The position numbers were made by a program, and so were the translations under genes. A stretch of 61,150 nucleotides of DNA, taken from IMG/VR virus record IMGVR_UViG_3300025572_000003. The stretch is one strand, 5' to 3'. Below, piece by piece: positions 225 through 61,059 of the stretch (the stretch's first letter is position 1; each line of letters begins with the position of its first letter). The notes beneath the pieces are model-generated. The model ran no database searches, was not told where the DNA came from, and worked only from the letters and a program-made list of their open reading frames with translations. Source of the DNA: a virus.

Positions 225-1091
225 ATGGCAAGTTTTGCGCCGGTCTGCCCTATCCATATCCTTGAGGCACTCATTGACATCGATCAGGCAGGCAACTACC
301 ACCTACCGCTTGCCCACGACGTGATCCATAACGAAATCCGATATGAACGTGCATTCAAGGTTATCCGTGAACAGTATGGACATTATCGGAGCACAGTTAT
401 CCTTGACAATTCTGTCATTGAACTTGGTTCGGCAGTGAACATTGAGGTAATTGCTGCCGCTGCAAAAACTGTCAAGGCCAATGTAATTGTTCTCCCTGAC
501 GTGCTTCTGGATGCTTCAGCAACAATTACGCAGTGTCGAAAAGCCCTAGATCCATGGTCTAAAAAGCTTGATCATGAATTGGGAGAGGGTAATTACACTT
601 TCATGTATGTTCCGCAAGGGACTACGCCGAATGAGTTTGCAGCTTGTGCCGAAGCACTCGCAGAAGATGAACGGATTGGTTGGTGGGGTATTCCGCGCAA
701 TTACAACATCAAAGGCCTCGGATCAAGGCGGGATGCTGTTGATATTGTACATATGCTAAACCCCAAGCGCAACATCCATCTCCTCGGCTTTTCAGACAAC
801 ATCCTCGATGATATACTTTCCGCACAGCATTCTGCAGTTACAGGAATGGACTCTGCAGTACCTCTTCGCGCAGCATCTCATGGCATGTCAATGTCTTTCG
901 ATATGGACAAAGAACTACCTCCAAGAGGTGACTGGTGGGAAGATCCCAAGACAGTATTTGACGTAGCAATGGTAAAGAACCTTAAATGGATACGGCGTCA
1001 TATCGGCGATCACGGGCGGAAGATCGAACGCCAGTATGTTGGCGGGGGTGTTGACAATGGAGTCCTCTACTACAAGCCAAACCAAGTATAA
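225..1091 (+). CDS. dpdA: DpdA-like DNA transglycosylase (tRNA-guanine transglycosylase superfamily, 7-deazaguanine insertion into DNA)
   Basis: ATG 225 (MASFAPV) is 1 nt after the upstream stop. TGT-fold landmarks IHLLGFS and GMDSAVPLR resemble the TGT HLLG.G and FD..P.R motifs. Sits next to queCDE. Confidence 0.7.
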   Translation: MASFAPVCPIHILEALIDIDQAGNYHLPLAHDVIHNEIRYERAFKVIREQYGHYRSTVILDNSVIELGSAVNIEVIAAAAKTVKANVIVLPDVLLDASATITQCRKALDPWSKKLDHELGEGNYTFMYVPQGTTPNEFAACAEALAEDERIGWWGIPRNYNIKGLGSRRDAVDIVHMLNPKRNIHLLGFSDNILDDILSAQHSAVTGMDSAVPLRAASHGMSMSFDMDKELPPRGDWWEDPKTVFDVAMVKNLKWIRRHIGDHGRKIERQYVGGGVDNGVLYYKPNQV

Positions 1092-1344
1092 GAACGGTAA
1101 CCCGTATTCAGATATTTTGGTTGTGTGCGCTGACAATGATCATATTGTTGCAACGCGGGAGGCACTTAGCAGGCTGTTGTCCGTATACTGTGTAACACCT
1201 GGAATGAGTATTCATGGCAGACGCTACCGGCGGATAATTGTTCTAGACCGGTTCATTGATCGAAACGACGTGAACGTTATTCGCTGGCTACGTGATTTGC
1301 CAAATTACCTGATGAACAAGAACGATGGTATCCATTACATCTGA
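1036..1344 (+). CDS. hypothetical protein (start uncertain: ATG 1036/1057 overlap dpdA; TTG 1117 or GTG 1123 possible)
   Basis: ORF track 1036..1344. No recognisable motif. Confidence 0.35.
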   Translation: MLAGVLTMESSTTSQTKYKNGNPYSDILVVCADNDHIVATREALSRLLSVYCVTPGMSIHGRRYRRIIVLDRFIDRNDVNVIRWLRDLPNYLMNKNDGIHYI

Positions 1345-1379: not shown

Positions 1380-3845
1380 ATGATTAATGTCCAACCTCGA
1401 GTCGTTCCACCGCGCGGTCCAGAAGATAGCCCTTTTGTCATTGTTGGTGAAGCTCCGGGGAAGGAAGAAATCAAGAAAGGTATGCCCTTTGTTGGGCCTT
1501 CTGGCCAAGTATTGTCGGAAGCACTTAAGCAGCTTCCCCACCCCGAACCTTACATTCTTAATGTTGTTCCGCATATGATTCAGGGAGAGAAGTCTCCTGA
1601 AATGTTGCAGGAGCTTGTACACAAATACCAAGCACAAGTACTTGAACTGGTGCGAAAGCATCCACGCAAAATAATTCTAGCACTTGGAAATGTTGCACTT
1701 TGGGCGCTGACCAACGATTTCAGTCACAAGATCACAAAGATACGCGGCAAGCTGCTGCAGTCTGATCTTTCCGAACGTGGTATTATTCCTACAACTCATC
1801 CTGCGTTTCTATTGCGCGGCAACGGTTCTTTCAGGCAGTTCAAGATTGACGTTGGCTATGCAATGGATCTTGCTGCTGGAGGTAAAGTTCGTGAGTTTGT
1901 CCCACCCACATGGGAATTACTGGACACAGTAGAGAAGGTCAAATGGTTTGTTGAGCAGGTTAAGCAGCATGAAGGGCTTGTATCAGGCGACTTGGAAACT
2001 GGCGGTTTTTCTCATCGGCTTGACAAAGTCCTAATGGGTGGCTTCACCCTTGACGGCAAGCATGTTTATGTTATTCCAGGTAAGAAACGGGAGTATATTA
2101 AAGCAGGTATTCCTGATCTATTCCCGTATCTGGCCGAGATGTGGGACGTTAGCTCTGAACAAGTACGATTCAACTGGCATAATGGCAAGTTCGATATCAA
2201 GTTCTTCCATCACCAGTATAACCAAGCCGCACGTGTTGACGATGATACCATGCTAATGTCTTATGCATTGGATGAAACATGTGGCGTACATGACTTGGAA
2301 ACAGTTGCTGCTGATTGGCTACACAGTCCAGATTGGAAAGGTATTCTAGACTCGCACAAAAAGAAGAATGAGTCCTACGATGTCATTCCAGAATCTGTAC
2401 TTGTTAAGTATATGGCATACGATATTGCTAACACTCACAACCTGGCATTCATTCTACGGCCGTTGATCGAGGCTGACTCAAAATCCTCCTTATTGTATTA
2501 CAAGACGTTGATCCCGGGAAGCAAGTATCTAGCCGAAATTGAAAAGGCTGGTATGCTTGTTGATCTGGAACGAGTTGAAAGCAATGCAGCCAGGTACGAA
2601 AAGGATGCAAAGGTCTACGAAGAGGAGTTAGAGCGGATTGCACGAGATGCGGGCATGCTTCCAACTACTCAAACCATTACCAAAGGTGGTAAGAAGGTTA
2701 AGGTAGTAGCGGCTGTCAACGTCAATTCACCCCAGCAGCTTAAGGAACTGTTCTTCGACGTACTCCAGATTCCGTCAAAGGAGAAGAGCACTAATGAAAA
2801 AGTGCTGAAGTCACTGCCAGATCATCCTGCAGTGGTTGCACTCCGTAAGTACCGCAAGATCAATAAGGGCCTGACAACTTATGTCCTCCCTGCAACAGAA
2901 CATATTCAGGATGATGGACGAGTTCACCCGACTTATTTGCTTCACGGTACTGCAACTGGTCGTCTTGCATGTAACAACCCAAACTTGCAGAATATTCCGC
3001 GTGAACCGCTTTTGCGTGGGCAATTCATTCCAAAGCCTGGATATTGCTTCGTTGAGGTCGATTTGAACCAGGCTGAGCTTCGATCACTCGCCATTCTGTC
3101 TGGAGATCCAGAACTTTGCCGAATCTATACTGATCCCAATTCAGTTGGACTACATGAAGAAGTACGCGCAGAATTGTACGGGCATCCAAAAGACTGGTCT
3201 GAGCAACAGATTCAAGCCTATATGCAGAAGTGGTACGTAGATACCATCGAGCGAGTAGTCGAAGAGCAGAAGATGCGTGCAAAGAACGTGAATTTCGGCA
3301 TCGTGTATGGAATCACGCCTTTTGGGTTGGCAGAGCAGATTGAGGATACCCCGCAGGAAGCTAGTCGAATGCTCGCAGGTTGGGCTAAAAAGTTCAAGGT
3401 TGCTTGGAACTTCATTCAGCTTTGCAGAAATGCACCACTTAATGGTAAGAATATCGTAACCTGCTTTGGACATAAGAAGCGGTTTGAGATCGTAACCCCA
3501 GAAACGATTATGGCGATCCAAAACGAAGCGGCAAACTTTCCGCACCAAAGCACTGCATCTACGATCACCCTTCATGGCGGTATGCGTATCCAAGACACTC
3601 TGCGGAAGGAATATGATACAAATATCGTCAACACCGTCCACGACTCAATTCTAATGGAGGTACCACTTGTCAAAGATGTAATTGAAGCAGTTGCCAACCT
3701 AGCTATCAATGCGCTAGAACAGGTTCCGCGAGATTGGGGTCTAACTCGAATTCCTTTCAAGGCGGAAGCTAAAGGTGGAATGCGTTGGGGTGAGCTGAAG
3801 AGTTTGAATAAGTTCTATGCAGAAGTCTTTGCTGAGTCTGCATAG
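1380..3845 (+). CDS. polA: DNA polymerase I family (3'-5' exo + pol A) with N-terminal family-4-like uracil-DNA glycosylase domain
   Basis: UDG motifs GEAPGKEE..G.PFVGPSG and HPAFLLR lie in the first ~170 aa. Exo motifs: DLETGG, NGKFD, YMAYDIANT. Pol motifs: DLNQAELRSLA (A), RAKNVNFGIVYG (B), VHDSILMEV (C). Confidence 0.93.
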   Translation: MINVQPRVVPPRGPEDSPFVIVGEAPGKEEIKKGMPFVGPSGQVLSEALKQLPHPEPYILNVVPHMIQGEKSPEMLQELVHKYQAQVLELVRKHPRKIILALGNVALWALTNDFSHKITKIRGKLLQSDLSERGIIPTTHPAFLLRGNGSFRQFKIDVGYAMDLAAGGKVREFVPPTWELLDTVEKVKWFVEQVKQHEGLVSGDLETGGFSHRLDKVLMGGFTLDGKHVYVIPGKKREYIKAGIPDLFPYLAEMWDVSSEQVRFNWHNGKFDIKFFHHQYNQAARVDDDTMLMSYALDETCGVHDLETVAADWLHSPDWKGILDSHKKKNESYDVIPESVLVKYMAYDIANTHNLAFILRPLIEADSKSSLLYYKTLIPGSKYLAEIEKAGMLVDLERVESNAARYEKDAKVYEEELERIARDAGMLPTTQTITKGGKKVKVVAAVNVNSPQQLKELFFDVLQIPSKEKSTNEKVLKSLPDHPAVVALRKYRKINKGLTTYVLPATEHIQDDGRVHPTYLLHGTATGRLACNNPNLQNIPREPLLRGQFIPKPGYCFVEVDLNQAELRSLAILSGDPELCRIYTDPNSVGLHEEVRAELYGHPKDWSEQQIQAYMQKWYVDTIERVVEEQKMRAKNVNFGIVYGITPFGLAEQIEDTPQEASRMLAGWAKKFKVAWNFIQLCRNAPLNGKNIVTCFGHKKRFEIVTPETIMAIQNEAANFPHQSTASTITLHGGMRIQDTLRKEYDTNIVNTVHDSILMEVPLVKDVIEAVANLAINALEQVPRDWGLTRIPFKAEAKGGMRWGELKSLNKFYAEVFAESA

Positions 3846-4217: not shown

Positions 4218-6614
4218 ATGTCTACCAACACCATGGCAAACAATCCTTTTGCAGCTAGGCTTGACCCGCTTCATCTGGCGCAAGACTTCCCGTACAAAGG
4301 CCTCTGCAAAGATATTTGGCGTGACAAGTATGCACAGCCGGGCGAAGAATCCTTCAGTGACACTGCACGCAGAGTGGTTGAAGGTGTTTACGCCAAAGAT
4401 CCGGATGAACAAGCAAAAATCCTCGCATATCATGCGATCAATGCGGGTCTTTGGGTTCCTGCCGGTAGAATCCTTGCAGGAGCTGGAACTGCGAAGCGTG
4501 TTACTCTAATGAACTGCTATGTTACCGGAACCATCGATGATTCGATGGAAGGTATCATGCGCGAACATACCAACTTTGCACTTACTATGCAGCAAGGAGG
4601 CGGAGACGGTGCTGATTTCTCTCCAATCCGTCCTGAAGGGGCTGTACTTAAACGCACGGGAACGAAAGCGTCGGGTCCGCTCCCTTTTATGGACATGTGG
4701 GACGCTATGTGCACTACTATTCGTAGTGCTGGTGATCGTCGGGGCGCTATGATGGCAGTGTTGAGTGACACGCATCCCGACTTGCCTAAATACATTGTTG
4801 CCAAGCAGACACCGGGTCGTTTGACTAATTTCAACATTTCCGTCCTTGTTTCCGACGCCTTTATGGAGGCTGTGAAGGATGATGAGGATTGGGTATTGCA
4901 CTTCCCGGTGATCCCTTGGGAGCGTGAGGATTGGCTCAAGGAATATGATTTTGTCGATGACAATGGTGTGCAGCAATATGCGTACTCCGTCTGGAAAGCT
5001 CGTGAACTGTGGGAATTGATTACCAAGAACACGTATGATTGGTCTGAACCAGGCGTTATCTTTATCGACCGAATCAACGAAGCCAATAATCTCTGGTACT
5101 GTGAAACTATCCGCTGTACGAATCCGTGCGGTGAACAGCCTCTACCGCCTCATGGCTCATGCAATCTCGGTCATGTCAATCTGGCGCGAATGGTTACCAA
5201 TCCGTTCACTGATAATGCGCAGTTTGACTTCAACCTTCTGAAAGAGATTGTTGCTATTGGTACGCGCTTCTTGGATAATGTGATTGATGTCACGAACTAT
5301 CCGCTTGAAGAGCAGCGTCTTGAGCAGTACAACAAACGTCGTATTGGTCTTGGCTTCACGGGTCTTGCAGATGCTATGGCTCAGCTTGGCATCCGCTATG
5401 GATCACTGAAGTCTGCTGATTTTGCCGAGCGCGTAATGAACTGCATTGCAGTCGCTACATATACGGCATCTATCAACCTTGCTAAAGAGCGCGGTGCGTT
5501 TCCGCTCTTTGATCCTGACCGATACCTGGATGAAAATTCGGGATCGTTTGTTAACAGGCAGATGCCTGCAGAGATTCGTGCGCTGATTCGCAAATACGGC
5601 ATCCGCAATGGTGTTCTAAACACGATTGCACCAACAGGCACCACGAGTATTGTATTTGGTAACTGTTCTGGTGGTCTCGAACCTGTCTTTGCACATTTTA
5701 CCCAGCGTAACGTGCGACAGGCAGATGGATCCTGGCTCCCATATCGTGAATACGGTTATGCTGCAAGACTCTTCTATGCACTGTTTGGAGAGACAACTCC
5801 TCTTCCATCGTACATGGTAACTGCAGAGGATCTGACTGTTCATGAGCATATCCTCATCCAGTCTCGAGTCCAGCGGTGGGTGGATGCATCAATTTCCAAA
5901 ACCATCAATATCCCTGAAAACATGCCTTATGACGACTTCGTCAAGGTTTACGAACTGGCATACAATGCAGGTTGCAAGGGATGCACCACTTACAGGCCAA
6001 GCGATGTACGTGGAGCAGTTCTTGTCAAAGCTAGCGATACCGATGCAACGGCAGAAAGCGGAAGCGGAAGCCCTGTTCCGAAAGCGGTGGAACAACTCAG
6101 AGAGCGTCCTGATGTCTTGCACGGATACACGTACAAGGTCAAGTGGCCCAGACGAGATGCTGCCTTCTACCTCACCATCAACGAGGACGATGAAGGAGTA
6201 CCGTTTGAAATCTTCATTACTAGCAAGGATGGATCGCACAGCGAGTGGACTACGGCACTTTCCTTGATGATCACAGCCATCTTCCGAAAAGGCGGTGATG
6301 TCTCGTTCATTCCGCAGGAACTTAAGCAGATTCAGTCTCTGCATGATGGTGCATTCATCGATCAGCAGTATGTTGGATCGCTTCCTGCATACATTGGTCG
6401 AATCCTTGAAAAGCATATGGAACGGAAGAAGGGCAATACCACGTCCCAGTCGGAGCTGAAGATTGCATCTGCCGATGGTGGATTGGCTATTGCTGACGGT
6501 AAGATCGTGATCAAGGATCAAAGAGGTGAGACTTGCCCCTCATGTAAAGCGCCGACACTCTTCCGAGTTGAGGGGTGCAAAAAGTGCAAGTCGTGCGGTT
6601 ACAGTGCATGTTAA
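4218..6614 (+). CDS. nrdJ: ribonucleotide reductase, class II (adenosylcobalamin-dependent)
   Basis: Active-site stretch CTNPCGEQPLPPHGSCNLGHVNL. C-terminal Cys cluster CPSCKAP..CKKCKSCGYSAC. GGAG RBS. Confidence 0.92.
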   Translation: MSTNTMANNPFAARLDPLHLAQDFPYKGLCKDIWRDKYAQPGEESFSDTARRVVEGVYAKDPDEQAKILAYHAINAGLWVPAGRILAGAGTAKRVTLMNCYVTGTIDDSMEGIMREHTNFALTMQQGGGDGADFSPIRPEGAVLKRTGTKASGPLPFMDMWDAMCTTIRSAGDRRGAMMAVLSDTHPDLPKYIVAKQTPGRLTNFNISVLVSDAFMEAVKDDEDWVLHFPVIPWEREDWLKEYDFVDDNGVQQYAYSVWKARELWELITKNTYDWSEPGVIFIDRINEANNLWYCETIRCTNPCGEQPLPPHGSCNLGHVNLARMVTNPFTDNAQFDFNLLKEIVAIGTRFLDNVIDVTNYPLEEQRLEQYNKRRIGLGFTGLADAMAQLGIRYGSLKSADFAERVMNCIAVATYTASINLAKERGAFPLFDPDRYLDENSGSFVNRQMPAEIRALIRKYGIRNGVLNTIAPTGTTSIVFGNCSGGLEPVFAHFTQRNVRQADGSWLPYREYGYAARLFYALFGETTPLPSYMVTAEDLTVHEHILIQSRVQRWVDASISKTINIPENMPYDDFVKVYELAYNAGCKGCTTYRPSDVRGAVLVKASDTDATAESGSGSPVPKAVEQLRERPDVLHGYTYKVKWPRRDAAFYLTINEDDEGVPFEIFITSKDGSHSEWTTALSLMITAIFRKGGDVSFIPQELKQIQSLHDGAFIDQQYVGSLPAYIGRILEKHMERKKGNTTSQSELKIASADGGLAIADGKIVIKDQRGETCPSCKAPTLFRVEGCKKCKSCGYSAC

Positions 6615-6626
6615 TAGGAGGACATA

Positions 6627-7196
6627 ATGAACAAGTCTGCCGAAACGTTTGACGAGCTGCAGCGTAACATGGAAGAGGCTTTCAAAGAGCTGACCAATAA
6701 TGTTCGACTGACTGAGCGTCCAACGCTTCCAGTCAGGGAACCCGCAGAGCGAGATATGCTGGGTCGTAAGAAGGTTATCGGCCTACGCAATGCAGACTCT
6801 GATGTGGGAGTTAATCCGAAGGATCGGATTGGTGCTGCCAAGATCGATTTCTCACTGATCCCAACGGCTGGCAAGATTGCTGAAGCCAAAGCACTGATGG
6901 ATGGTGGATCGAAGTATGGCCCATACAACTGGCGTGTGGAACCTGTTCGGGCACGTACATACATTAGCGCAATCGAACGTCACCTGGAAGACTATAAGGA
7001 AGGTCATGAGATTGCATCAGATTCCTTGATTGAGCATCTTGGCCATATCAAGGCATGCTGCTCCATCCTGATTGACGCCGCTGTTCAGGGTATGCTGATT
7101 GATGATCGTCCGATTAACCGCATTCAGGAGCGGTCACTCATTGATGAGGCCAACCAGTGGATCAAGCAGAACAAGCCGGAAGGATGGGGTCGATGA
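6627..7196 (+). CDS. MazG-like all-alpha NTP pyrophosphohydrolase-type protein (DUF5664 / dATP-dGTP diphosphohydrolase-like domain)
   Basis: Pattern KIDFSLIP..A.A...G..KYGPYNWR...Y..A..RHL......D..IEHLGH matches my recollection of this phage domain family. Perfect AGGAGG RBS. Confidence 0.45.
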   Translation: MNKSAETFDELQRNMEEAFKELTNNVRLTERPTLPVREPAERDMLGRKKVIGLRNADSDVGVNPKDRIGAAKIDFSLIPTAGKIAEAKALMDGGSKYGPYNWRVEPVRARTYISAIERHLEDYKEGHEIASDSLIEHLGHIKACCSILIDAAVQGMLIDDRPINRIQERSLIDEANQWIKQNKPEGWGR

Positions 7197-7245
7197 CAGC
7201 ATCAACGTCACTTCGTAACTTCCAGTCTTGATGAGGAGAGGGTGT

Positions 7246-8097
7246 ATGACCCAAAGTACACATAAGGTAATCCACCTGGCTGAAACCCAATTAAATGCAT
7301 CCGGAGTATCTGAGTTCCTGAAAGAACTTGGTGCACCTGAATGGTCTTCTGTTGAACCTAAGAGTGATGCCGATCTGCTCGTTGAAATTGCTGGACGACT
7401 CTGCTACAAGTCGTTCAACACTGAGCTGAATCCGAACATTACACGGGTACGCGAAGGTAATCAGGAATATGTCAAAAACATCCTGAAGCAGAAGCACGGA
7501 TCTGTTTTGGAACACGCTTCTGTTACATTTGCATTCCTCAATGTCTCTCGGATCTTCACCCACGAAATCGTACGCCATCGTGCAGGTATGGCATTCAGCC
7601 AGGAAAGTCAGCGTTTCGTCCGGCTTGATACTTTCGAGGTGTATATCCCAGATCTCACTGATGCACTTGAGGAACTTTACGACAGCCAGTACACGGATAG
7701 TACAGCAAGTGCTAAGCAGATCTGGGTTAATCAAGCTCAACAGGACTTCATTGCCTCAGTAGAGCATGTCAAAGAGCAAGCACAAACTGCACTTCGAGAC
7801 TTGATTGCTAGCTGGGGGCTCGATAACGAAGGTGTTACATTCTCAGTCAAGAAGAAGCTGACATCTGCATTGCGTCGACTTGTTCCCGGTGGAGTTAACA
7901 CCCATATCATTGTAACAGGTAACCACCGTGCATGGCGGCATGTTATCGAGAATCGTACTGCTCCCGGTGCTGAGCAGGAGATTAGAGATATCCTCTATGA
8001 CGTCGGTAAGCAGTTGAAAATGCGCTATCCTGCAATCTACCAAGATATGAATCAAGACGAAGATGGGTGTTGGCGGTTTGTGAATTCAAAGGTTTAA
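7246..8097 (+). CDS. thyX: flavin-dependent thymidylate synthase
   Basis: ThyX signature RHRAGMAFSQESQRF (RHR..S....S.R). RBS GGAGAGGG before ATG 7246. Confidence 0.9.
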   Translation: MTQSTHKVIHLAETQLNASGVSEFLKELGAPEWSSVEPKSDADLLVEIAGRLCYKSFNTELNPNITRVREGNQEYVKNILKQKHGSVLEHASVTFAFLNVSRIFTHEIVRHRAGMAFSQESQRFVRLDTFEVYIPDLTDALEELYDSQYTDSTASAKQIWVNQAQQDFIASVEHVKEQAQTALRDLIASWGLDNEGVTFSVKKKLTSALRRLVPGGVNTHIIVTGNHRAWRHVIENRTAPGAEQEIRDILYDVGKQLKMRYPAIYQDMNQDEDGCWRFVNSKV

Positions 8098-8286: not shown

Positions 8287-8964
8287 ATGGCTACCGATCC
8301 TGAACTTGGTGAAAAGATCCATAAACACCTTGTTGCCCTGGGGCTTGAAACGCCGATGGAGAAGAATCCAGAAGCACCCCTATTGGTCGACGGGGTACCC
8401 TTGAATAAGTTCGACAGTATTAAGCATTGCCACCACTTGACAATGCGTTCATTGGGTTTGGATCTTAATGACGACTCGTTGCGGGACACACCTAAGCGGA
8501 TCGCGAAGATGTACTGCAATGAGATCTTCACCGGACTCGATTACGCAAACTTCCCCAAGGCGACCACTGTTGAGAACAAGATGCAGTACAATGAAATGGT
8601 CTGCGTCAGTGGTATCACAGTACAGTCTATGTGTGAGCACCATTTCCTCCCGTTTGTTGGGACCGCATCTGTAGCGTATATTCCCGACAAGCTTGTACTC
8701 GGACTCAGCAAGTTCAATCGGGTGGTTGAATTCTTCTCTCGTAGGCCGCAGATTCAGGAAAGACTTACCGAACAGATCTCGGCAGCATTGCGGCTTATTC
8801 TCCAGACCGAAGATGTTGCAGTAGTCATCAATGCAGATCACTATTGCGTCAAGCTCCGCGGTATTCGTGATGGATGCTCAAACACCGTAACTTCTCGTTT
8901 GGCAGGTAAATTCCGCACTGTACCTGAACTGCGTGCAGAATTTCTGGCTTTGAGCCGTACGTGA
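8287..8964 (+). CDS. folE: GTP cyclohydrolase I
   Basis: CEHHFLPF zinc/active-site motif, typical length. First step of the preQ0 pathway. Confidence 0.9.
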   Translation: MATDPELGEKIHKHLVALGLETPMEKNPEAPLLVDGVPLNKFDSIKHCHHLTMRSLGLDLNDDSLRDTPKRIAKMYCNEIFTGLDYANFPKATTVENKMQYNEMVCVSGITVQSMCEHHFLPFVGTASVAYIPDKLVLGLSKFNRVVEFFSRRPQIQERLTEQISAALRLILQTEDVAVVINADHYCVKLRGIRDGCSNTVTSRLAGKFRTVPELRAEFLALSRT

Positions 8965-11045: not shown

Positions 11046-12469
11046 GCGCCGATCCTCGGAATTTGATAGTCGATCCAGCCCCGACAGCGTAGACTGCAAG
11101 GAGTAGAGGGGTGCGGACTGTTAGTAACCTCCAGTTGAATTTGCTGCGTTGTGTTCGTGAACGCCATAATTGGCGTGACGCTAGTCATCGCGCCAGCTGA
11201 TGAATGCAGGGCAGCAGTGTCTCGAATGTCTGGGTGCAGACCATCGTACACGTACATATGCACATACGCATTACTTCCCGCCGTGTTCAGCACGGCCTGA
11301 AAAAGCCCCTGCACGCGCACGCCGTTCGGAACCACCACAGACAGCGGAGCTTTTGCGCGCGTCGTGGTGGCCGAATAGACCACGATGCCATCTGCGGCAT
11401 TGAAAAGAAACGTGTTACCGTTTTGCACAAACGGCCGGATGTTCCCGCTGCCATCGGTCATGATCGCTCCGAGCCGCTGTATGCGCGTGTGGCCAGACGG
11501 AACCGCGGGGTTTGTTGCCGAGAGGGCAAGCGTCGCCGTAAATTCACCCGTGGTATTGTTGCGAAACGCCCAGACGTGGTAGGTCGTGTTCGGCTGCTTT
11601 GGGGCAACGCCAAATGTCGCGGTGTACACGGCTGGGTTGACGACCGTCACTCCATTGCTATAGGCGCGCCCTGGCGCAATGTCGATTTTGTTGTTTGGGT
11701 CAGCCGCATTGTTCGAAAGCGTCAGCCCCTGGACAAACCCATCCAGCGCAATGCCGCTGTGCCAGATAGTGCGGAAGTTGGTCCCATCGTACCACGACAA
11801 ATTTTCGCCAACAAATAATAGCCTTGCGGCAGTCGCTCCATCAGGAGTACGAATCTCAATTACTATGCGCCTGTTTGTGTTGTCCCAGTATATGACAGCA
11901 TTTTGCAGGGAGCCGTCAGCATTCCTGAACCGGATACTGTTGTATCCATCACCGCTCATGAATATGTTCGAGCCCAGCACATCGAGCTGACCATCCACCT
12001 GGATGTTGCCGCGGGCTCTGGCGGTCACGCCGTTCGAGGCCTTGATCTTCTTGCCGGTGGTGGCGTCGAACAGGACAACCTCGTTGTTAACCACACCGCC
12101 ACTCGGGCCGAAGACATCGCCGATGCCGTCTGGATCAGGCAGCTCACGCACGAGCGCCAAATACTCACCCAACTTCCGCCCGTAATTGCGCGGGTCGGTG
12201 TGCGCGATGCCGCGCATCACCACATACGCCCCGTTGGTGATGTTGGCGCCTGTCCAGTTGAGGGCCAGTCTCAGCTCGGTATCCGAGATGATCTCCTCGA
12301 CCAGGCCAATCGCACCACCCGTGAGGAAGAGATCGCCCTGCTCAAGGGCCGAGGTCCATGCGCCGCCGGTTCCGGTCACAATCCGGCTGCCGTTGGTCAC
12401 AGTCGCGACCGAGCCTTGCCCCGCGCCGGGGATGTTGGTTCCGTAGAGGTAGGGATATGCAAGCGTCAT
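11042..12469 (-). CDS. tail fiber / receptor-binding protein candidate
   Basis: 475 aa, Gly/Thr/Asn-rich and beta-rich. Last large gene of the tail module. Confidence 0.5.
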   Translation of the reverse strand: MTLAYPYLYGTNIPGAGQGSVATVTNGSRIVTGTGGAWTSALEQGDLFLTGGAIGLVEEIISDTELRLALNWTGANITNGAYVVMRGIAHTDPRNYGRKLGEYLALVRELPDPDGIGDVFGPSGGVVNNEVVLFDATTGKKIKASNGVTARARGNIQVDGQLDVLGSNIFMSGDGYNSIRFRNADGSLQNAVIYWDNTNRRIVIEIRTPDGATAARLLFVGENLSWYDGTNFRTIWHSGIALDGFVQGLTLSNNAADPNNKIDIAPGRAYSNGVTVVNPAVYTATFGVAPKQPNTTYHVWAFRNNTTGEFTATLALSATNPAVPSGHTRIQRLGAIMTDGSGNIRPFVQNGNTFLFNAADGIVVYSATTTRAKAPLSVVVPNGVRVQGLFQAVLNTAGSNAYVHMYVYDGLHPDIRDTAALHSSAGAMTSVTPIMAFTNTTQQIQLEVTNSPHPSTPCSLRCRGWIDYQIPRIGA

Positions 12470-12527
12470 AGCCGTGCGCTCCTCGACCGCGTGCTACGCG
12501 GCACGAAATAGTTGCTCAGGATTGTGT

Positions 12528-12899
12528 TCAGAGGTTGCGCGGCAGCGGGATACCCGCCGTACTCAAGGCCGCAGCAATTTCGGCGTGCGTCTGGGCGGCC
12601 CGCACAGCCTGTTTTACGGCAACACGCCGCAGTTTGCGCTCCAACGTTTCCTCAGACATAACCAGAACGCGCGAGGCGAGATCAGCCACTGACATGCCTC
12701 GCATGTCGGCCTCCGCCACGAAGGCAGCTGGTGGTGTGCCTCCATCCCTAACATGCATTGCGGCAGCAATAGTAGCGGCATCTTCGCTGGCCAGCATGAG
12801 CCTTGGCGAGACTTGTGCGAAATGCATATCGATAGCGCGCTCAGCCTGTTCACGGAAGGCGTCAAGAGGCGGAGCGACAGTGATGGCTTGGTTGGTCAT
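12528..12899 (-). CDS. hypothetical protein
   Basis: ORF track. High-GC codon pattern consistent with neighbours. Confidence 0.45.
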   Translation of the reverse strand: MTNQAITVAPPLDAFREQAERAIDMHFAQVSPRLMLASEDAATIAAAMHVRDGGTPPAAFVAEADMRGMSVADLASRVLVMSEETLERKLRRVAVKQAVRAAQTHAEIAAALSTAGIPLPRNL

Positions 12900-13291
12900 T
12901 AGCGCACCTCCACAGTGAAGCGAGCATCACGCTGCGGGAAGGCTTCAATGGCGATCTCGTAGGTGCCCGGCAGGACGAACGTAAGATCGGCGGCATCCAC
13001 CTCTGCGGTGAACGTCTGCGTCGCGGGCCCAGTGATGGAAACGCGGGCACCAGGCACCAAACCGGAAAGCGTCACAGACTGGCCCGCCTCTATCGTCGTC
13101 TTGTCCAGCGCAGCCGTCGAAGCCGGTCGCATGCGCAAGGCACCATCGACGACATACCCGACAGATGGGTCGTGCGAGACCTCGATAAAAGAAAGGCCCC
13201 GCTTCTCAAGCAGTGTCCTGTAGCTGGCAGGATCAGCGACGCTGGCCGTCTGCACGATACGGCCCGTCTCATCATAGATAACGAAGGTCAT
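12899..13291 (-). CDS. hypothetical protein
   Basis: ORF track. Start/stop coupled to neighbours. Confidence 0.45.
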   Translation of the reverse strand: MTFVIYDETGRIVQTASVADPASYRTLLEKRGLSFIEVSHDPSVGYVVDGALRMRPASTAALDKTTIEAGQSVTLSGLVPGARVSITGPATQTFTAEVDAADLTFVLPGTYEIAIEAFPQRDARFTVEVR

Positions 13292-13671
13292 GTGATATTC
13301 CCTATAACGAAGAAGATAAAGGGCCCGGTGAGGCCACCAGCCGTATGCACAGTAACCCGATCTTGGTAAACGGTATACCAGAAACCAAAATCATATGAAT
13401 GGACATAATTGTATCCATTCCAAGTAGCCGCGACTTCGCGTATAGGTGTGAGCCCGTCAAAGCGATGGCCGATAACGAGCGGGAATGTCGGATAGACTCG
13501 GCTGAAGTAGGCAGTACCACCAGACTCGGCGATAACATGGCGCTCGCAGATCGCCGCTTTGTACTTGGACGAAAACGACAACCCGGGGTCGAGATCGCTA
13601 GCGACACCTCCCGCCACCGAAGCGACGCGAAACGGGTCAGCCGGATTTCCCATCTCAAGATGTAGCGCCAT
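13288..13671 (-). CDS. hypothetical protein
   Basis: ORF track. 4-nt overlap with the downstream gene. Confidence 0.45.
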   Translation of the reverse strand: MALHLEMGNPADPFRVASVAGGVASDLDPGLSFSSKYKAAICERHVIAESGGTAYFSRVYPTFPLVIGHRFDGLTPIREVAATWNGYNYVHSYDFGFWYTVYQDRVTVHTAGGLTGPFIFFVIGNIT

Positions 13672-14093
13672 CAGAATGTCCTCCGATAGATGATGTAGAG
13701 CGCATAGCTTGCAATGAGTTCAGGAGGACCAGTCCACCACCGATGCGCTGCGATATAAAGCTGCGTTTGCGACACGCTGTACACCAGCTCGAAATATGCT
13801 CTCATGAAGCCGTAAGAATCCACAAAATGGGGCGGGACAGTGATGGCCCCATTCGTGACACCACACACGAACGCCTCCGGCACCGCATCATATGGGCCGA
13901 TATTGATCGTTGTTGCTCGATGGTAGGAAGGCGTGCCAACTCCCTGCTCAGGAAGAAACGCGAGCCCCATTTCCAGTATTTGCCCGAAGTTCGCGCCAAG
14001 ATAAAGCAATAGATCAGATATACCGGCCGTATCGACGTCAAATCCGGGCTTGGAAATCTTCAACGTTGTTGCGTCGAGAAGAACACGCTTCAC
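13671..14093 (-). CDS. hypothetical protein (140 aa), paralog of 14098..14520
   Basis: GTG 14093 with GGAG 7 nt upstream, 4 nt after the upstream stop. Shares RV.L...L..S.PG.DV.TA with its neighbour. Confidence 0.45.
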   Translation of the reverse strand: MKRVLLDATTLKISKPGFDVDTAGISDLLLYLGANFGQILEMGLAFLPEQGVGTPSYHRATTINIGPYDAVPEAFVCGVTNGAITVPPHFVDSYGFMRAYFELVYSVSQTQLYIAAHRWWTGPPELIASYALYIIYRRTF

Positions 14094-14097
14094 TCCC

Positions 14098-14520
14098 TTA
14101 CTCCATGATGAAGATGACGTACTTGAAGGTTGCGTCCCCACTATCGTATGGGCTAACGTACGTGAAGTACACAGTCCTGCTCCCCGGTGCCCCGCCCCAG
14201 ACAGCCTTGAATCGCACGTTTGAAAATACGATTTGGCTAGTGTCGCGCTGAAAATAACTGAACGGGACCAGTGTATTAGGTCCCGCTGCCGCGCACCACC
14301 ACATCGCGGGAACACCCGTGATGAAGGACGGCAACGCGATTACCTGATTGATGGAGACATAGCCGGACATCACCACCGACGCGACCTCCCCCCACTCGGT
14401 AGAGAAAGACAGGTCCGTGATGCTGCTTGGATCGGCTGTGAACACATCGATGCCAGGCAGAGAGACGAAAAGCCCAATCGGCCCAGCCGGATGCTGCCCG
14501 AGAATAACCCTACGAGTCAC
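14098..14520 (-). CDS. hypothetical protein (140 aa), paralog of 13671..14093
   Basis: ORF track. N-terminal RVILG..GLFVSLPGIDVFTA. Confidence 0.45.
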   Translation of the reverse strand: MTRRVILGQHPAGPIGLFVSLPGIDVFTADPSSITDLSFSTEWGEVASVVMSGYVSINQVIALPSFITGVPAMWWCAAAGPNTLVPFSYFQRDTSQIVFSNVRFKAVWGGAPGSRTVYFTYVSPYDSGDATFKYVIFIME

Positions 14521-18187: not shown

Positions 18188-18195
18188 CTCGTATC

Positions 18196-18612
18196 CTATG
18201 CAGTGCGGCGGAAATACCGGACGTTGTGAAAGCCCTTGGCGAGCAGCGTCGGCCAGTCGTCTGCGACAACACCGGTCGGCGCATCAGTATGCAGCACGAG
18301 CCTGCGGGCGCCGTCAGCAACAAAGACCCCGAGGTGAAAGTCCCGGCCGTCCACGTTGCCCATCAGCACGAGGTCGCCATCCTGTGGCGGCGCAACGCGC
18401 TCCCACATGACGCGCTCTGGATGGCCAAGAATGGCTCGGGCCGTAGCTCGGGGCTCGGCGGCTTCCCGCGTGATCGTAGGCAGCTCGACGCCGTAGATTT
18501 CGCCCAGCACATAACGGGCGAGCCCATAGCAGTCGAACGCATCGGGACCGTCCGCCCCTACCACGTAGGGCCGGCCAATCAGCTCCCGGAGGCGTGCAAT
18601 CCTGTTGCTCAT
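18196..18612 (-). CDS. NlpC/P60-family tail protein (lambda gpK-like)
   Basis: Catalytic Cys context FDCYGLARYV and downstream His (FHLGVFV). Position between the gpL-like and gpJ-like genes. Confidence 0.65.
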   Translation of the reverse strand: MSNRIARLRELIGRPYVVGADGPDAFDCYGLARYVLGEIYGVELPTITREAAEPRATARAILGHPERVMWERVAPPQDGDLVLMGNVDGRDFHLGVFVADGARRLVLHTDAPTGVVADDWPTLLAKGFHNVRYFRRTA

Positions 18613-19136
18613 GATGTCGCCAGCAAGCTCGGGTATTCCTGCGCCGAGTAAACCTTACGCAGGAAGCGGAGGTTCTGCGGGTTGGCGAGGGTCACATGCC
18701 CCTCGATACGCGAGCCTGTCTCCGTGATCTCGCGCATCACCATCCTGAACGGCCCATACGCCACGGTGGTCGGGTCACTCGCGAGGTAGACGCGGAAGAT
18801 GACGGTGAGCGTGGCATTCATCGTCTCCGCCTGGTCAAGATAGCGCGACACCTCGCGGCCGATATTATCAACCCGCAGCACCGCCTCGACCGGGCGCCCC
18901 TCCTCAAAGCCAGGCCATTCAATCTCGAACGGCACGGCCTTGAAGACCACATCCTGCCCGCCATTGAGCGGCGCGCCGGGCTCCAACCGCAAGGTCTTGT
19001 CCTCGAGCTGGTTGACGACGCGCACAGACTGGGCACCGAAAGCCGGGTGCAGCAGCTCGACCGTCACGAGCTGCACATCCGTCTTGGGGTTGGACGCGAT
19101 GTTGATGGCAAATTCGTCAGTCCACGGATCAGCCAT
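18609..19136 (-). CDS. minor tail protein (DUF1833-like, gpL position)
   Basis: Gene order plus my recollection of the DUF1833 pattern (VELLHPAF...VPFEI..P). Confidence 0.45.
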   Translation of the reverse strand: MADPWTDEFAINIASNPKTDVQLVTVELLHPAFGAQSVRVVNQLEDKTLRLEPGAPLNGGQDVVFKAVPFEIEWPGFEEGRPVEAVLRVDNIGREVSRYLDQAETMNATLTVIFRVYLASDPTTVAYGPFRMVMREITETGSRIEGHVTLANPQNLRFLRKVYSAQEYPSLLATS

Positions 19137-41352: not shown

Positions 41353-42285
41353 ATGATCGACCTTTCAAAGTTCAGACCACTCCTGTCTGCAACAGTTGAG
41401 CCAGGCACTGAACATTTGCTGAAGTTCCCGCTACTGGGTAGCCCGAAGATCGACGGTATTCGAGTTATCTGCCACCCAACTTTGGGACCAGTAACGCGTA
41501 CTCTGAAACCCGTACCAAACAAATTCATCCGGGAATATCTGTCGCATCCAATGTTGCGATGGCTTGATGGGGAAGTCGTTGTTGGCGATGCGTGTGCGCC
41601 AAACGTCTTCAACCTATCTCAGTCTGGAGTGATGTCACAGGACGGTACTCCAGATTTCACGTACATTGTGTTTGACCACTTTGGCAGTAGTTCACTCAAT
41701 TGTCCTTTCAGTCTTCGACTAAAGGATGCAGAGATTGCTGTACGAGAATTTGCCATACAGTCTGAAACGCAGTCGCGCGTACAGTTTCTTAAACACACCT
41801 TGATCGAAGACATCATCTCGCTAGATCAGTTCGAAAGCGAGATGTTGGACAAAGGTTATGAAGGTGTCATGCTTCGACACCCTCATGGCAAATACAAGTA
41901 CAACCGCTCTACCTTCAAAGAGCACATCCTCCTGAAAATGAAGCGGTACGAAGATGACGAAGCAGTCGTTATCGGGTGGGAGCCGCTCTACAGGAACAAC
42001 AACAAGGCATTTATCGATGAACGAGGGTACCAAAAGCGGTCAAGTCACCAAGCGAACAAAATTGCTGATGACAGTCTTCTAGGAAAACTTCTGGTCAGGG
42101 GTTCTTCAGGGAAGTGGGCTGGCGTTCAGTTTGACATTGGTTCCGGTTTTACTGAAAGCCAGCGGCGCGACTATCGAAATCAGATTGATTCCCTGATAGG
42201 TAAAACTGTGACATACAAATATCTACCATATGGGTCAAAGGATGCACCGCGCCATCCAATCTTCAAGGGCTTCCGCTATGACTGA
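41353..42285 (+). CDS. lig: ATP-dependent DNA ligase
   Basis: Adenylation motif I GSPKIDGIR (KxDG). EGVMLR motif. ~310 aa, typical of minimal phage ligases. Confidence 0.85.
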   Translation: MIDLSKFRPLLSATVEPGTEHLLKFPLLGSPKIDGIRVICHPTLGPVTRTLKPVPNKFIREYLSHPMLRWLDGEVVVGDACAPNVFNLSQSGVMSQDGTPDFTYIVFDHFGSSSLNCPFSLRLKDAEIAVREFAIQSETQSRVQFLKHTLIEDIISLDQFESEMLDKGYEGVMLRHPHGKYKYNRSTFKEHILLKMKRYEDDEAVVIGWEPLYRNNNKAFIDERGYQKRSSHQANKIADDSLLGKLLVRGSSGKWAGVQFDIGSGFTESQRRDYRNQIDSLIGKTVTYKYLPYGSKDAPRHPIFKGFRYD

Positions 42286-52500: not shown

Positions 52501-52698
52501 ATGGATATTGCGGCATTCATTATGGCCTGGTTTGTTGGTGCATACATCACCTTTCAGGAGCTTACCTACGGAGAAGAAGAATACATTCGGCACCTTACCT
52601 TGTGGGAAAAGGTTGCAATTGCATTGTGGCCGATTACCTGGATTGTCTTGATCTGCATCGGACTGAAAATGTGCATTATGAGGTTCTTCAGCAAATGA
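52501..52698 (+). CDS. small membrane protein (two TM helices)
   Basis: IAAFIMAWFVGAYITF and VAIALWPITWIVLICIGL. Confidence 0.5.
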   Translation: MDIAAFIMAWFVGAYITFQELTYGEEEYIRHLTLWEKVAIALWPITWIVLICIGLKMCIMRFFSK

Positions 52699-53153
52699 TC
52701 CTCTCCGGACAAAGCATTCGCAAGAGATGTCTTCAGGAAGGGTTGCTTTATCCCTTCCACGAACGTGGAGTGGTCGAAGGCATGTCCTTCGGCCTTTCTG
52801 TTGCTGGGTATGATATCCGTGTTGCCGAACCTCATGTTTTGTACCCTGGCGATTTCGTGTTGGCATCCTCTATTGAGCGGTTTGCCATGCCTGACGATCT
52901 AATCGCTTTTGTCCATGACAAAAGTACGTGGGCTCGAAAAGGGCTGGCAACACAGAATACGGTCATTGAACCTGGTTGGTGTGGTTTTTTGACTTTGGAA
53001 TTGACCAACCATTCTACGGACATCATTATCATCAAGGAAGGCATGCCAATCGCCCAGATTGTTTTCCATTTGCTTGATATGCCTGCGGAGAAACCCTATA
53101 ATGGAAAATACCAACACCAAAAAGCCGGCCCACAGGCAGCCAAATACGAGTGA
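52695..53153 (+). CDS. dcd: dCTP deaminase / dUTPase-superfamily protein
   Basis: ILSGQSI...GYDIRV......IEPGWCGFLTLELTN, typical of Dcd. ATGA overlap at 52695. Confidence 0.75.
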   Translation: MILSGQSIRKRCLQEGLLYPFHERGVVEGMSFGLSVAGYDIRVAEPHVLYPGDFVLASSIERFAMPDDLIAFVHDKSTWARKGLATQNTVIEPGWCGFLTLELTNHSTDIIIIKEGMPIAQIVFHLLDMPAEKPYNGKYQHQKAGPQAAKYE

Positions 53154-58923: not shown

Positions 58924-59652
58924 ATGCAGCGAAAAGCATTTGTTCTCCTGTCAGGTGGTATGGATTCTACCACGTGTCTGTACAAAGCATACAAGGACTT
59001 TGACGGCTCTGTTGAAGCTATCAGCATCAACTACGGCCAGCGTCACAAGCGTGAGCTGACTTTTGCCAAGCAGTCGTGTGATCGTCTCGGTATTAACCAC
59101 ACCATTCTCGATGTCGGCGATCTGCTGTCGGGCAAGGAAGTTCTCCTGTCTGCTGCGTCGATCGGCGAGATGGAGATGGTCCACAAGGACTACTCCGAGA
59201 TCAAGGGTGTTTCTCCTTCCTACGTCCCGTTCCGTAACGGCCTTCTTCTGTCAGCAATCACGGCTTATGCACAGAAGTACGTCAATAGTCAGGTCGGCTA
59301 CGACAACGAGCGTCTGGGCTACGCCAAGGATCTCGTGACCATTTATTATGGTGCGCATGCAGAAGACGCTGCTAATTGGGCGTATCCAGATTGCACGCCG
59401 GAATTCAATGGATCGATGGCAAATGCAATCTACACTGGATCCTACAACACCATTCGGCTGGCAACTCCGCTGCAGTGGCTTGAGAAGTGGCAGATTGTGC
59501 AGCTTGGCGAATCTCTTGGGGTTGATTGGCGCTTGACCTGGAGCTGCTACGACAACGGTGATATCCACTGCGGTAAGTGCCCCACATGCCTTGCACGAAA
59601 AGCTGCATTCAAGCGCGCAGGTGTTGTTGATCCAACCGAATACGCCGAGTGA
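58924..59652 (+). CDS. queC: 7-cyano-7-deazaguanine (preQ0) synthase
   Basis: PP-loop LLSGGMDSTT. C-terminal zinc motif CGKCPTCLARK. Confidence 0.9.
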   Translation: MQRKAFVLLSGGMDSTTCLYKAYKDFDGSVEAISINYGQRHKRELTFAKQSCDRLGINHTILDVGDLLSGKEVLLSAASIGEMEMVHKDYSEIKGVSPSYVPFRNGLLLSAITAYAQKYVNSQVGYDNERLGYAKDLVTIYYGAHAEDAANWAYPDCTPEFNGSMANAIYTGSYNTIRLATPLQWLEKWQIVQLGESLGVDWRLTWSCYDNGDIHCGKCPTCLARKAAFKRAGVVDPTEYAE

Positions 59653-60230
59653 CCAGAATGTCTGATCCTACTCTGATTTATCAGAGCACGAAGACCTACA
59701 CGCACAGTGTAGGTCTTTCTGCTTGTTTCCGCCAGTGGCGTGCCGAATCGCATTGCCGTTTCCTGCATGGATATTCGCTTGAAGTCCACTTTGTCTTCGA
59801 AGCTGTGGAATTAGACGTTCGAAACTGGGTAGTGGACTTTGGCTCACTCAAGAGCCTCAAGGGTTGGCTAGAGGATACCTTCGATCACAAGACACTAGTT
59901 GCAGAGGATGATCCGCTTCTTGAGCACTTCCAGAATATGCACAAGCTGGGAATGCTTGATCTAAGGGTTGTTCCTGCATGCGGTTGTGAAAAATTTGCCG
60001 AAATGATCTACCATTATACAGACACTTGGCTTCGAGATAATGGATATTCACCACGGTGTATTCTGCGAAGTGTGGAAGTCAAGGAACACCAAGGTAACAG
60101 CGCACGTGTAATTTGTGTAGATGCGCTTCCGCAGCGGTTAGCCACTAACATACAGTCAGACGGGCATATGGCAATTGGCGATCTCTTTAGCTATTCGCAG
60201 AACAAGGGAGATACTGATGGTCAACCCTGA
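59649..60230 (+). CDS. queD: 6-carboxy-5,6,7,8-tetrahydropterin synthase
   Basis: PTPS-like CRFLHGYS and DHK..V motifs. Start GTG 59649 or ATG 59658. Confidence 0.8.
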   Translation: MTRMSDPTLIYQSTKTYTHSVGLSACFRQWRAESHCRFLHGYSLEVHFVFEAVELDVRNWVVDFGSLKSLKGWLEDTFDHKTLVAEDDPLLEHFQNMHKLGMLDLRVVPACGCEKFAEMIYHYTDTWLRDNGYSPRCILRSVEVKEHQGNSARVICVDALPQRLATNIQSDGHMAIGDLFSYSQNKGDTDGQP

Positions 60231-61059
60231 AGATCAGGTTAACAAAAAGATACCACTCGTAGAAATGTTTGGACCAACTATACAGGGTGAAGGGTCTGTA
60301 ATTGGTCAGCAGACATATTTTCTACGGTTCGGACTTTGTGACTACAAGTGCAAGATGTGTGATTCCATGCATGCAGTCTTGCCCTCAGAAGTCAAGCGAA
60401 ATGCAACCTGGCTAACTCAGCAGGAAATCTACAACAATTTTCTTGAGTTCCATGTACCAGACAGCACTAATTGGGTCACTTTTTCCGGCGGTAATCCTGC
60501 AGTCCATGAACTGGGTCATCTCCTTGGACTTCTACGACTACAGGGTTTCAAGGTAAATGTCGAGACGCAGGGTACCTTGTGGAAGGGATGGCTTGGGAAG
60601 GTAGATTCTCTGACGATCAGTCCCAAAGGTCCTGGCATGGGTGAAAAGCATGATCAAAGTGCATTCGAGCGTTTCTGTGACGCATTGTATGCTAGCATGC
60701 GTAATGGGCTCAGACACACCCCGGATTTGTGTGTCAAGATCGTTGTGTTTGATCAGCGGGATCTGGACTTTGCAGCAGAAATCTTCTCCTACCTGAAGAA
60801 GCATCCTTTGCTGGCTTGGCAAGATCCTTCCAGATTCTTCTACCTGTCGCTTGGTAATCCTATTCCACCACCTGCTGATGGTTCGCAAGCGTTCGACCCA
60901 GAAACACGTGAGCCGTTAACAAGCTGGAAACACCATCAAATCCTCTTGCAGCGGTATCGAACGTTGTACGAGGACATTCAGAAGCATCCGATTCTGTCGC
61001 AGACGCGATTCCTTCCCCAGTGGCATGTTTTTGTATGGGGTAATGATCAGGGGCACTAA
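60217..61059 (+). CDS. queE: 7-carboxy-7-deazaguanine synthase (radical SAM)
   Basis: FGPTIQGEG and Cys triad CDYKCKMC. GGGAG RBS before ATG 60217. Confidence 0.85.
   Translation: MVNPEDQVNKKIPLVEMFGPTIQGEGSVIGQQTYFLRFGLCDYKCKMCDSMHAVLPSEVKRNATWLTQQEIYNNFLEFHVPDSTNWVTFSGGNPAVHELGHLLGLLRLQGFKVNVETQGTLWKGWLGKVDSLTISPKGPGMGEKHDQSAFERFCDALYASMRNGLRHTPDLCVKIVVFDQRDLDFAAEIFSYLKKHPLLAWQDPSRFFYLSLGNPIPPPADGSQAFDPETREPLTSWKHHQILLQRYRTLYEDIQKHPILSQTRFLPQWHVFVWGNDQGH

Follow-up and report, generated by a model that had tools for sequence, protein, structure and literature searches.

A cysteine-free uracil-DNA glycosylase domain with a conserved active site on a phage family A DNA polymerase in a guanine-modification module

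The uracil-DNA glycosylases (UDGs) of family 4 hold a [4Fe-4S] cluster on four conserved cysteines, and what this cluster is for is an old question. The locus described here raises it again. In the 61,150-nucleotide viral DNA of IMG/VR record IMGVR_UViG_3300025572_000003 (the whole stretch is called the window below), the gene at 1380..3845 on the + strand encodes a family A DNA polymerase (PolA) whose N-terminal domain has the fold and motifs of a family 4 UDG and no cysteine. Can such a domain still be an enzyme? An earlier sequence-only reading of this DNA had pointed out the fusion and the missing cysteines, and had left room both for base surveillance and for a repurposed, non-catalytic DNA-binding module. 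Our answer is a qualified yes to the enzyme, and it rests chiefly on which residues were kept when the cluster ligands were lost.

A glycosylase fold without its cluster ligands

The gene is a single unbroken open reading frame (ORF) of 821 amino acids, with an ATG at 1380, a stop at 3843-3845 and no internal stop. A Shine-Dalgarno-like AAGGG lies 8-13 nt 5' of the ATG; upstream of 1380 there is no in-frame start, and no frame there encodes CxxC. Its parts are as follows.

1380..3845 (+), whole gene: UDG, 3'-5' exonuclease and family A DNA polymerase (ORF and translation; Pfam, NCBIfam and PHROG matches; AlphaFold2 model)
1380..1877 (+), residues 1-166: cysteine-free domain with the UDG fold (PF03167; PDB sequence matches; domain model; Foldseek)
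1446..1460 (+), residues 23-27: UDG motif A, GEAPG, with the catalytic E24
1488..1490 (+): F37, the base-stacking Phe of PFVGPSG
1560..1562 (+): N61, the uracil-recognition Asn, within ILNVV
1572..1574 (+): H65, where the third cysteine ligand of the Fe-S cluster would be
1626..1628 (+): Y83, in the place of the fourth such ligand
1797..1817 (+), residues 140-146: UDG motif B, HPAFLLR, with the catalytic H140
1908..2474 (+), residues 177-365: 3'-5' proofreading exonuclease domain (weak DNA_pol_A_exo1 match; invariant residues; VIA-align)
2475..3842 (+): family A polymerase domain with thumb, palm and fingers (PF00476; invariant motifs; Foldseek and VIA-align to Pol I large fragments)

Pfam places PF03167 (UDG) on residues 10-152 far above chance (E 8.6e-19; 68.5 bits against a gathering cut-off of 24.3) and DNA_pol_A (PF00476) on residues 444-805 (E 3.9e-64), with a weak match of DNA_pol_A_exo1 to residues 187-363, while the NCBIfam Pol I models cover residues 181-807. 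A full-length AlphaFold2 model built on a 115-sequence alignment is a confident single body, with a predicted local distance difference test (pLDDT) of 95.6 and a predicted template modelling (TM) score of 0.91, and over residues 174-808 it aligns in VIA-align with the large fragments of Bst, Klenow and Taq at Z about 35; Pol I large fragments fill both the Foldseek and the VIA-align lists of this model. The exonuclease residues D204, E206, D272, Y344 and D348 and the polymerase residues D561 (motif A), K635, F639, Y643 and G644 (motif B) and D755 (motif C) are invariant across 115 homologues; the exo I/II/III carboxylates and Pol motifs A, B and C of a proofreading family A polymerase are thus all present. 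An N-terminal UDG, a 3'-5' exonuclease and PolA therefore lie in one polypeptide; more than 100 homologues likewise have both the UDG and the polymerase in a single chain, and a 96%-identical protein of the same 821-residue length is encoded on an independent contig. The in-frame fusion to a complete exonuclease and polymerase that had been read from the letters stands, and the unbroken ORF and its independent copy dispose of the alternative of two genes joined by a frameshift or sequencing artefact.

The profile match, above its gathering threshold, and the predicted alpha/beta fold both assign residues 1-166 to the UDG superfamily, so that profile search and structure prediction, the checks that had been proposed for this domain, both return a UDG fold and not some other one. 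Modelled alone, the domain has a pLDDT of 96.6, and in Foldseek it matches UDG structures with probability 1.00 (TM 0.68-0.74 to 1L9G, 1UI0, 4ZBX and UdgX), as well as the UDG domain of the phiLo polymerase, 9QHS. By sequence, it finds the family 4 UDGs of T. maritima and T. thermophilus in the PDB with E about 1e-16. The family 4 motifs first reported for it were confirmed (GEAPGKEE at residues 23-30, PFVGPSG at 36-42 and HPAFLLR at 140-146): the signatures GE(A/G)PG and HP(S/A)xxxR are present and aligned to the same motifs of 1L9G and 1UI0, and N61 lies opposite the Asn in the NVVKC / NIVKC block of both sequences. Free-standing family 4 UDGs (TM0511, 1L9G/1VK2; T. thermophilus, 1UI0; S. 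tokodaii, 4ZBX) and UdgX share this fold, motifs A and B and the pocket Phe and Asn at 31-33% identity, but they consist of one domain and hold a [4Fe-4S] cluster by four cysteines, whereas the domain of the window is fused to a polymerase and lacks the cluster ligands. UdgX further carries a loop with the cross-linking His109, which reads Ser in the H109S/Q53A mutant 8IIR used for alignment; about nine residues are missing from the window protein at this point, and a UdgX-like covalent mechanism is ruled out by the absence of the loop.

The claim that the first ~170 residues contain no cysteine proved to be an understatement: none occurs in residues 1-300, the first being at 301 and the others at 531, 556, 580, 682 and 695. 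The four cysteine columns of the family have their counterparts among the cysteines of the UDG sequences from T. maritima and T. thermophilus. In the window protein the first two, an N-terminal pair upstream of motif A, fall in a deleted segment, and the third and fourth are H65 and Y83. All four ligands of the family 4 cluster are missing, in line with the absence of the cluster that had been deduced from the cysteine count. Among relatives that bear the cluster both of the latter positions are Cys in 68/68, and in the cluster-free clade they are His, Ser or Tyr (position 65) and Asn, Tyr or His (position 83).

How the ligands are distributed was surveyed in an alignment of 188 family members, of which 130 have all four cysteines, 45 have none, 8 have the fourth only and 5 appear to be truncated at the N-terminus. 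A maximum-likelihood tree gathers cluster-free proteins, the window protein included, into one clade of 50 with support 0.997; outside it, cluster-free cases are singletons or one pair, some apparently truncated. Parsimony on the midpoint-rooted tree gives a cluster-bearing root. Close relatives with and without the cluster are about 55-60% identical and share the same active site.

It is this active site that bears on function. E24, P26, H140 and P141 are invariant across the 115 homologues, and G23, G27, F37, N61 and R146 are conserved in at least 90% of them; with the Glu of motif A and the His of motif B both retained, the domain has the hallmark of active-type UDGs. Within the cluster-free clade (46 aligned members) E24, F37 and H140 are kept in 46/46 and N61 in 43/46, against 65/68 for F37 and 67/68 for N61 in cluster-bearing relatives. 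By mean pairwise identity within this clade (UDG domain 0.59, polymerase 0.61, exonuclease 0.55) the UDG domain is about as conserved as the polymerase domain, and there is no sign that it decayed once the cluster was lost. Read from alignments, this is the pattern of a maintained active site and not of a decaying or merely structural module. One position within motif A does change: residue 25 (nt 1452-1454) is Ala in 46/46 cluster-free proteins and Ser (62) or Gly (6) in the 68 cluster-bearing ones, a substitution that, across the aligned proteins, tracks the loss of the cofactor.

The idea that the cluster-free state is unique to the clade of the window protein was rejected. A search of 1.8 billion representatives for the nearest relatives of the domain (137 examined, at 50% clustering) gave proteins overwhelmingly of fusion length, among them about a dozen further representatives without ligands, most of which keep the E, F, N and H. 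Outside the clade, P0196, P0223, P0241 and P0253 (fusion length) and P0229, P0259, P0263 and P0264 (short) lack the Fe-S cysteines with E/F/N/H kept; the short proteins could be gene fragments or free-standing UDGs that have no cluster. Judging from its scatter over these sequences, cluster loss has probably happened more than once and is a recurrent minority state. In 80 related IMG/VR loci it showed no visible association with gene content (ThyX, dCTP deaminase, dNTP pyrophosphatase or QueD), these genes being sporadic in cluster-free and cluster-bearing loci alike. No cultured phage falls within the cluster-free clade; MaInes, phiLo, the stand-alone SP-15 UDG and BSP19/Youna2 all keep four cysteines. 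A glycosylase analogy is the cluster-free MutY, MutYX, in which the [4Fe-4S] cluster is reported to have been lost in particular clades while the protein is still a glycosylase, although it has a helix-hairpin-helix fold, another substrate and no polymerase fusion (PMC11722440). With cluster-bearing and cluster-free members side by side, the present clade provides a natural comparison for asking what the family 4 cluster does.

Function of the domain in the light of known fusions

The sequence-only reading was right to put the domain with the SPO1-related UDG-PolA group, but it overrated the novelty of the fusion as such, which has been published, solved by cryo-EM and found active in relatives, and the UDG of SPO1 is cysteine-free too. 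The fusion and its likely mechanism were already known; what is new is a monophyletic cluster-free clade with an intact active site, and the tight linkage of the whole polymerase subfamily to a 7-deazaguanine module rather than to thymine modification. UDG-PolA fusions have been described from SPO1, SP-10, SP-15 and N4-like phages; the UDG catalytic residues are lost in the N4-like PolAs and retained in SPO1, SP-10 and SP-15, and the UDG domain of a phage PolA has been predicted to lie between the exonuclease and polymerase domains (Czernecki et al., 2023; PMC10201439). The polymerases of phiLo and YerA41 have been solved by cryo-EM (PDB 9QHS, 9QHU and 9QLH), and in them the UDG domain contacts the 5' template strand in front of the active site and excises deoxyuridine (dU), not a 5-substituted base, from the template, the flipped dU lying near E and H residues; the abasic site is bypassed by the polymerase, mainly with dA, and completion of repair by a phage PolX and ligase has been proposed (Missoury et al., 2026; PMC13697223).

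The SP15-like enzymes of Thermus phage phiLo and Yersinia phage YerA41 have, as in the window, an N-terminal family-4-type UDG with an intact motif A Glu and motif B His, an exonuclease and PolA, and a DNA ligase encoded in the genome. Their length, however, is 1100-1300 residues, which takes in two large inserts and a C-terminal domain. Lacking the large inserts, the window protein is too short for this class (at least 1000 amino acids, with Insert 1, Insert 2 and the C-terminal domain): of its 821 residues, 174-808 give a Klenow-type alignment to large fragments of 540-580 residues with Z about 35. The phiLo UDG domain keeps all four cysteines and that of the window has none; SP15-like phages modify thymine and carry PolX, whereas the window has 7-deazaguanine genes and no PolX among the ORFs scanned.

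A second group is formed by the SPO1-like proteins of Herelleviridae. Bacillus phage SPO1 gp31 has the same three-domain order, a similar length and 26% identity over 98% of the query, and its UDG domain likewise lacks cysteine ligands, but its motif A reads QENPF (degenerate) and its motif B HPNTVLK, in place of the window protein's canonical GEAPG and HPAFLLR. Hydroxymethyluracil is present in SPO1 DNA, and the phage is not among the records with a DpdA-like gene, which the window has. SPO1 gene 31 (L002 268-897), the founder of the name 'SPO1 polymerase-related UDG', is itself without the four cluster cysteines.

The best matches in the phage collection are from Brevundimonas phages vB_BpoS-MaInes/StAshley (37% identity, 97% coverage), followed by a Bacillus/Weizmannia group at about 29% and SPO1-like Herelleviridae at about 26%; the collection holds no near-identical DNA to the window. 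MaInes and StAshley, and BSP7, BSP19, BSTP5/8/10/12 and Youna2, the nearest relatives in culture, have in common with the window a module of queC-queD-queE, (folE), a DpdA-like gene, UDG-PolA and ribonucleotide reductase (RNR), but unlike the window protein their polymerases keep the four Fe-S cysteines. Those of the Bacillus group have motif A GDSPI, and in BSP19 (L086 9698-10297) and Youna2 (L085 9704-10303) this unusual motif A goes with the motif B HPQYVLQ; in both phages the annotation splits the polymerase in two around small ORFs, suggesting an intervening element. Relatives are plentiful in metagenomes: more than 460 proteins at E below 1e-20 in a metagenomic protein collection, with PF03167 and PF00476 in nearly all of the matches listed, and 511 related loci confirmed in an IMG/VR scan.

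We propose, with moderate confidence, that the N-terminal ~166 residues form an active, cluster-free family-4-type uracil glycosylase that clears the template ahead of the polymerase. The fold, the active-site residues, the missing ligands and the pattern of conservation are shown by the sequences and models; activity, scanning of the template and later repair are inferred. The mechanism would most likely be that solved for phiLo and YerA41, leaving the basic picture unchanged. By analogy with these two enzymes, the UDG domain would meet the single-stranded template ahead of the polymerase active site, flip out uracil arising from dUTP misincorporation or cytosine deamination and remove it to leave an abasic site, which the polymerase would bypass and which would be repaired later, with a phage-encoded ligase taking part. 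The genome may thereby be protected against dUTP misincorporation, cytosine deamination and possibly host defences that raise dUTP. Three other genes of the window enter into this proposal.

7228..8097 (+): thymidylate synthase ThyX (TIGR02170, 115.1 bits against a cut-off of 87.9)
41353..42285 (+): ATP-dependent DNA ligase, possibly acting at the last repair step (PF01068, PF14743)
52602..53153 (+): dCTP deaminase (TIGR02274, 106.9 bits against a cut-off of 92.8; PHROG 1663)

A dCTP deaminase together with ThyX makes dU nucleotides plausible intermediates of the phage's own thymidylate supply. If the domain is active as proposed, a small, oxygen-insensitive, metal-free UDG-polymerase could also serve as a reagent.

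Several points tell against an active glycosylase. To our knowledge, every characterised family 4 UDG and UdgX bears the cluster, and the activity of a cluster-free form is a prediction. The domain scores below the curated cut-offs of both TIGR00758 (UDG family 4; 72.2 bits against 125.3) and TIGR03914 (UdgX; 74.5 bits against 189.95). The sole cysteine-free precedent found, SPO1 gp31, has the degenerate motif A QENPF, and we know of no proof of its UDG activity. Neither PolX nor an apurinic/apyrimidinic endonuclease was found among the about 30 of the window's ORFs that were scanned. A deaminase or ThyX lies within 10 kb of the polymerase in only a few relatives, and for this reason these two genes do not explain the UDG domain.

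One alternative explanation is that the UDG domain binds DNA or uracil without cutting it, either as a module for processivity, strand displacement or template guiding or as a 'read-ahead' sensor of uracil by which the polymerase is stalled. The missing Fe-S cluster could be a step toward such a purely structural role, roles of this kind have been proposed for inactive UDG domains (PMC10201439; PMC13697223), and all domains pack together in one confident model. The N4-like PolAs (cluster 17 in PMC10201439) show what such a domain looks like: they share with the window protein an N-terminal family 4 UDG fold on a phage PolA of about 800-900 residues, but their UDG catalytic residues are replaced or deleted, whereas those of the window protein and its cluster-free relatives are intact, which rules out N4-like dead-UDG status. 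In that clade the UDG domain also evolves as slowly as the polymerase domain, and a water-activating Glu would be needless for pure DNA binding. We regard the non-catalytic module, one of the roles allowed for at the outset, as unlikely, the catalytic and uracil-pocket residues being invariant or nearly so.

The DpdA-like partner and the remaining alternatives

The sequence-only reading had set the polymerase in a genome predicted to contain 7-deazaguanine and to encode a dCTP deaminase and ThyX. FolE, QueD, QueE, QueC, the dCTP deaminase and ThyX were all identified, together with a divergent DpdA-like gene upstream of the polymerase.

225..1091 (+): candidate DpdA-like (TGT-fold) DNA transglycosylase, the conserved upstream partner of the polymerase (profile matches, synteny)
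8287..8964 (+): FolE (GTP cyclohydrolase I), first step to preQ0 (PF01227, E 5.6e-62)
58924..61059 (+): queC-queD-queE block (QueC, PF06508, E 1e-53; PTPS, E 2.7e-16; QueE, TIGR03365, E 1.9e-58)

The NCBIfam DpdA match of the gene at 225-1091 is weak (E 0.074), and it has no Pfam match, TGT or other, and no PHROG match. As a profile of 41 homologues, its top match in the PDB is 7UI4, a bacterial DpdA (DNA-guanine transglycosylase), with E 0.0023 over 120 residues, and its product is 38% identical to that of the same-position gene of MaInes. If the genome is circularly permuted, the queC-queD-queE block lies just upstream of it, and MaInes has the same gene order. The paper describing the MaInes isolate makes no mention of deazaguanine or of polymerase domains.

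Synteny was assessed by tblastn of window proteins against 80 IMG/VR loci (L005-L084) chosen for polymerase similarity. Of the 76 loci with enough upstream sequence, 74 have a DpdA-like gene that precedes the polymerase on the same strand by no more than 2.5 kb, the median gap being 166 nt. QueC is found upstream of the polymerase in 51/55 loci and QueE in 48/55, and SNF2, PD-(D/E)XK and AAA_24 genes in 43 to 50 of 55. In the cultured-phage collection a DpdA-like homologue is detectable in only nine records, the very nine that give the best matches to UDG-PolA, and it abuts the polymerase in every one; these phages infect Alphaproteobacteria and Bacilli (Brevundimonas, Bacillus, Weizmannia). 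In BSP19 and Youna2 (L086, L085) the end of the DpdA-like gene overlaps the start of the polymerase. The survey for an enrichment of this fusion beside dpdA, which had been suggested as a check, thus gave a strong result, with this polymerase subfamily nearly always beside DpdA-like and preQ0 genes, and no paper describing the pairing was found. The association is real but in part a matter of descent, the loci having been selected by similarity of the polymerase, and one-directional, because other UDG-PolAs occur without DpdA. Complete replacement of guanine has been linked to the DpdA3 subfamily (PMC10516641). The DpdA3 phages named in that study infect Cellulophaga, Campylobacter and Flavobacterium; no phage of these hosts was among the matches when the phage collection was searched with the UDG domain, and they are thus without a detectable UDG of this type.

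UDG-PolA has so far been tied to thymine-modifying phages. The present subfamily, with hundreds of metagenomic members and few cultured phages, sits in a guanine-modification module, and built-in uracil removal may therefore be more general in phage replicases than the thymine link suggests.

Another possibility is that the domain is a glycosylase with a shifted or additional substrate tied to the adjacent guanine-replacement system, either by acting on another damaged or unwanted pyrimidine or by cooperating physically with the DpdA-like transglycosylase at the fork. The close pairing of the two genes in nearly all related viral contigs and in 9/9 cultured phages with a DpdA-like gene, their overlap in BSP19 and Youna2, and the change of motif A residue 25 from Ser/Gly to Ala together with cluster loss are in keeping with this. 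The pocket residues, however, are the canonical uracil-specific family 4 set, and the SP15-like enzymes excised only dU and not a 5-substituted base. Synteny within one replication module can reflect descent and not function, UDG-PolAs without DpdA exist (SPO1, SP15-like, N4-like), and none of the phages from the DpdA3 host genera was returned by the UDG-domain search. We think a substrate shift or a DpdA partnership improbable, synteny alone being what suggests it. A bolder version is that the DpdA-like transglycosylase and the UDG-polymerase form a functional pair at the fork in guanine-replacing phages, in which adjacency and overlap arise from synthesis, uracil removal and base exchange being coupled physically or kinetically, and cluster loss is an adaptation of a DNA-bound enzyme and not neutral drift; we offer this as speculation with a low chance of being right. 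Hardly credible is the notion that faulty assembly, a frameshift or a wrongly placed start has produced the fusion or hidden the cysteines, given an unbroken ORF with a Shine-Dalgarno-like AAGGG, no in-frame upstream start or CxxC frame, a near-identical protein of equal length on another contig and a cluster-free state common to fifty independent sequences; frameshift and mis-start are ruled out on these grounds.

Other genes near the polymerase

Three further features flank the genes discussed above.

1036..1344 (+): orphan ORF of 102 amino acids between the DpdA-like gene and the polymerase (no Pfam or PHROG match)
4218-6614: class II-type ribonucleotide reductase
6627-7196: all-alpha dATP/dGTP-diphosphohydrolase-like protein, between RNR and ThyX (PF18909, E 3e-22; PHROG 801)

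The orphan gave no tblastn match in the 80 related IMG/VR loci or in the MaInes locus. Homologues of the diphosphohydrolase-like gene occur in 11/80 of the related loci, and such a hydrolase of purine dNTPs may influence the dGTP pool of a phage that replaces guanine. Base composition divides the window, with GC of 0.58-0.64 across the tail/host-recognition genes at 12000-19000 against about 0.47 in the replication half.

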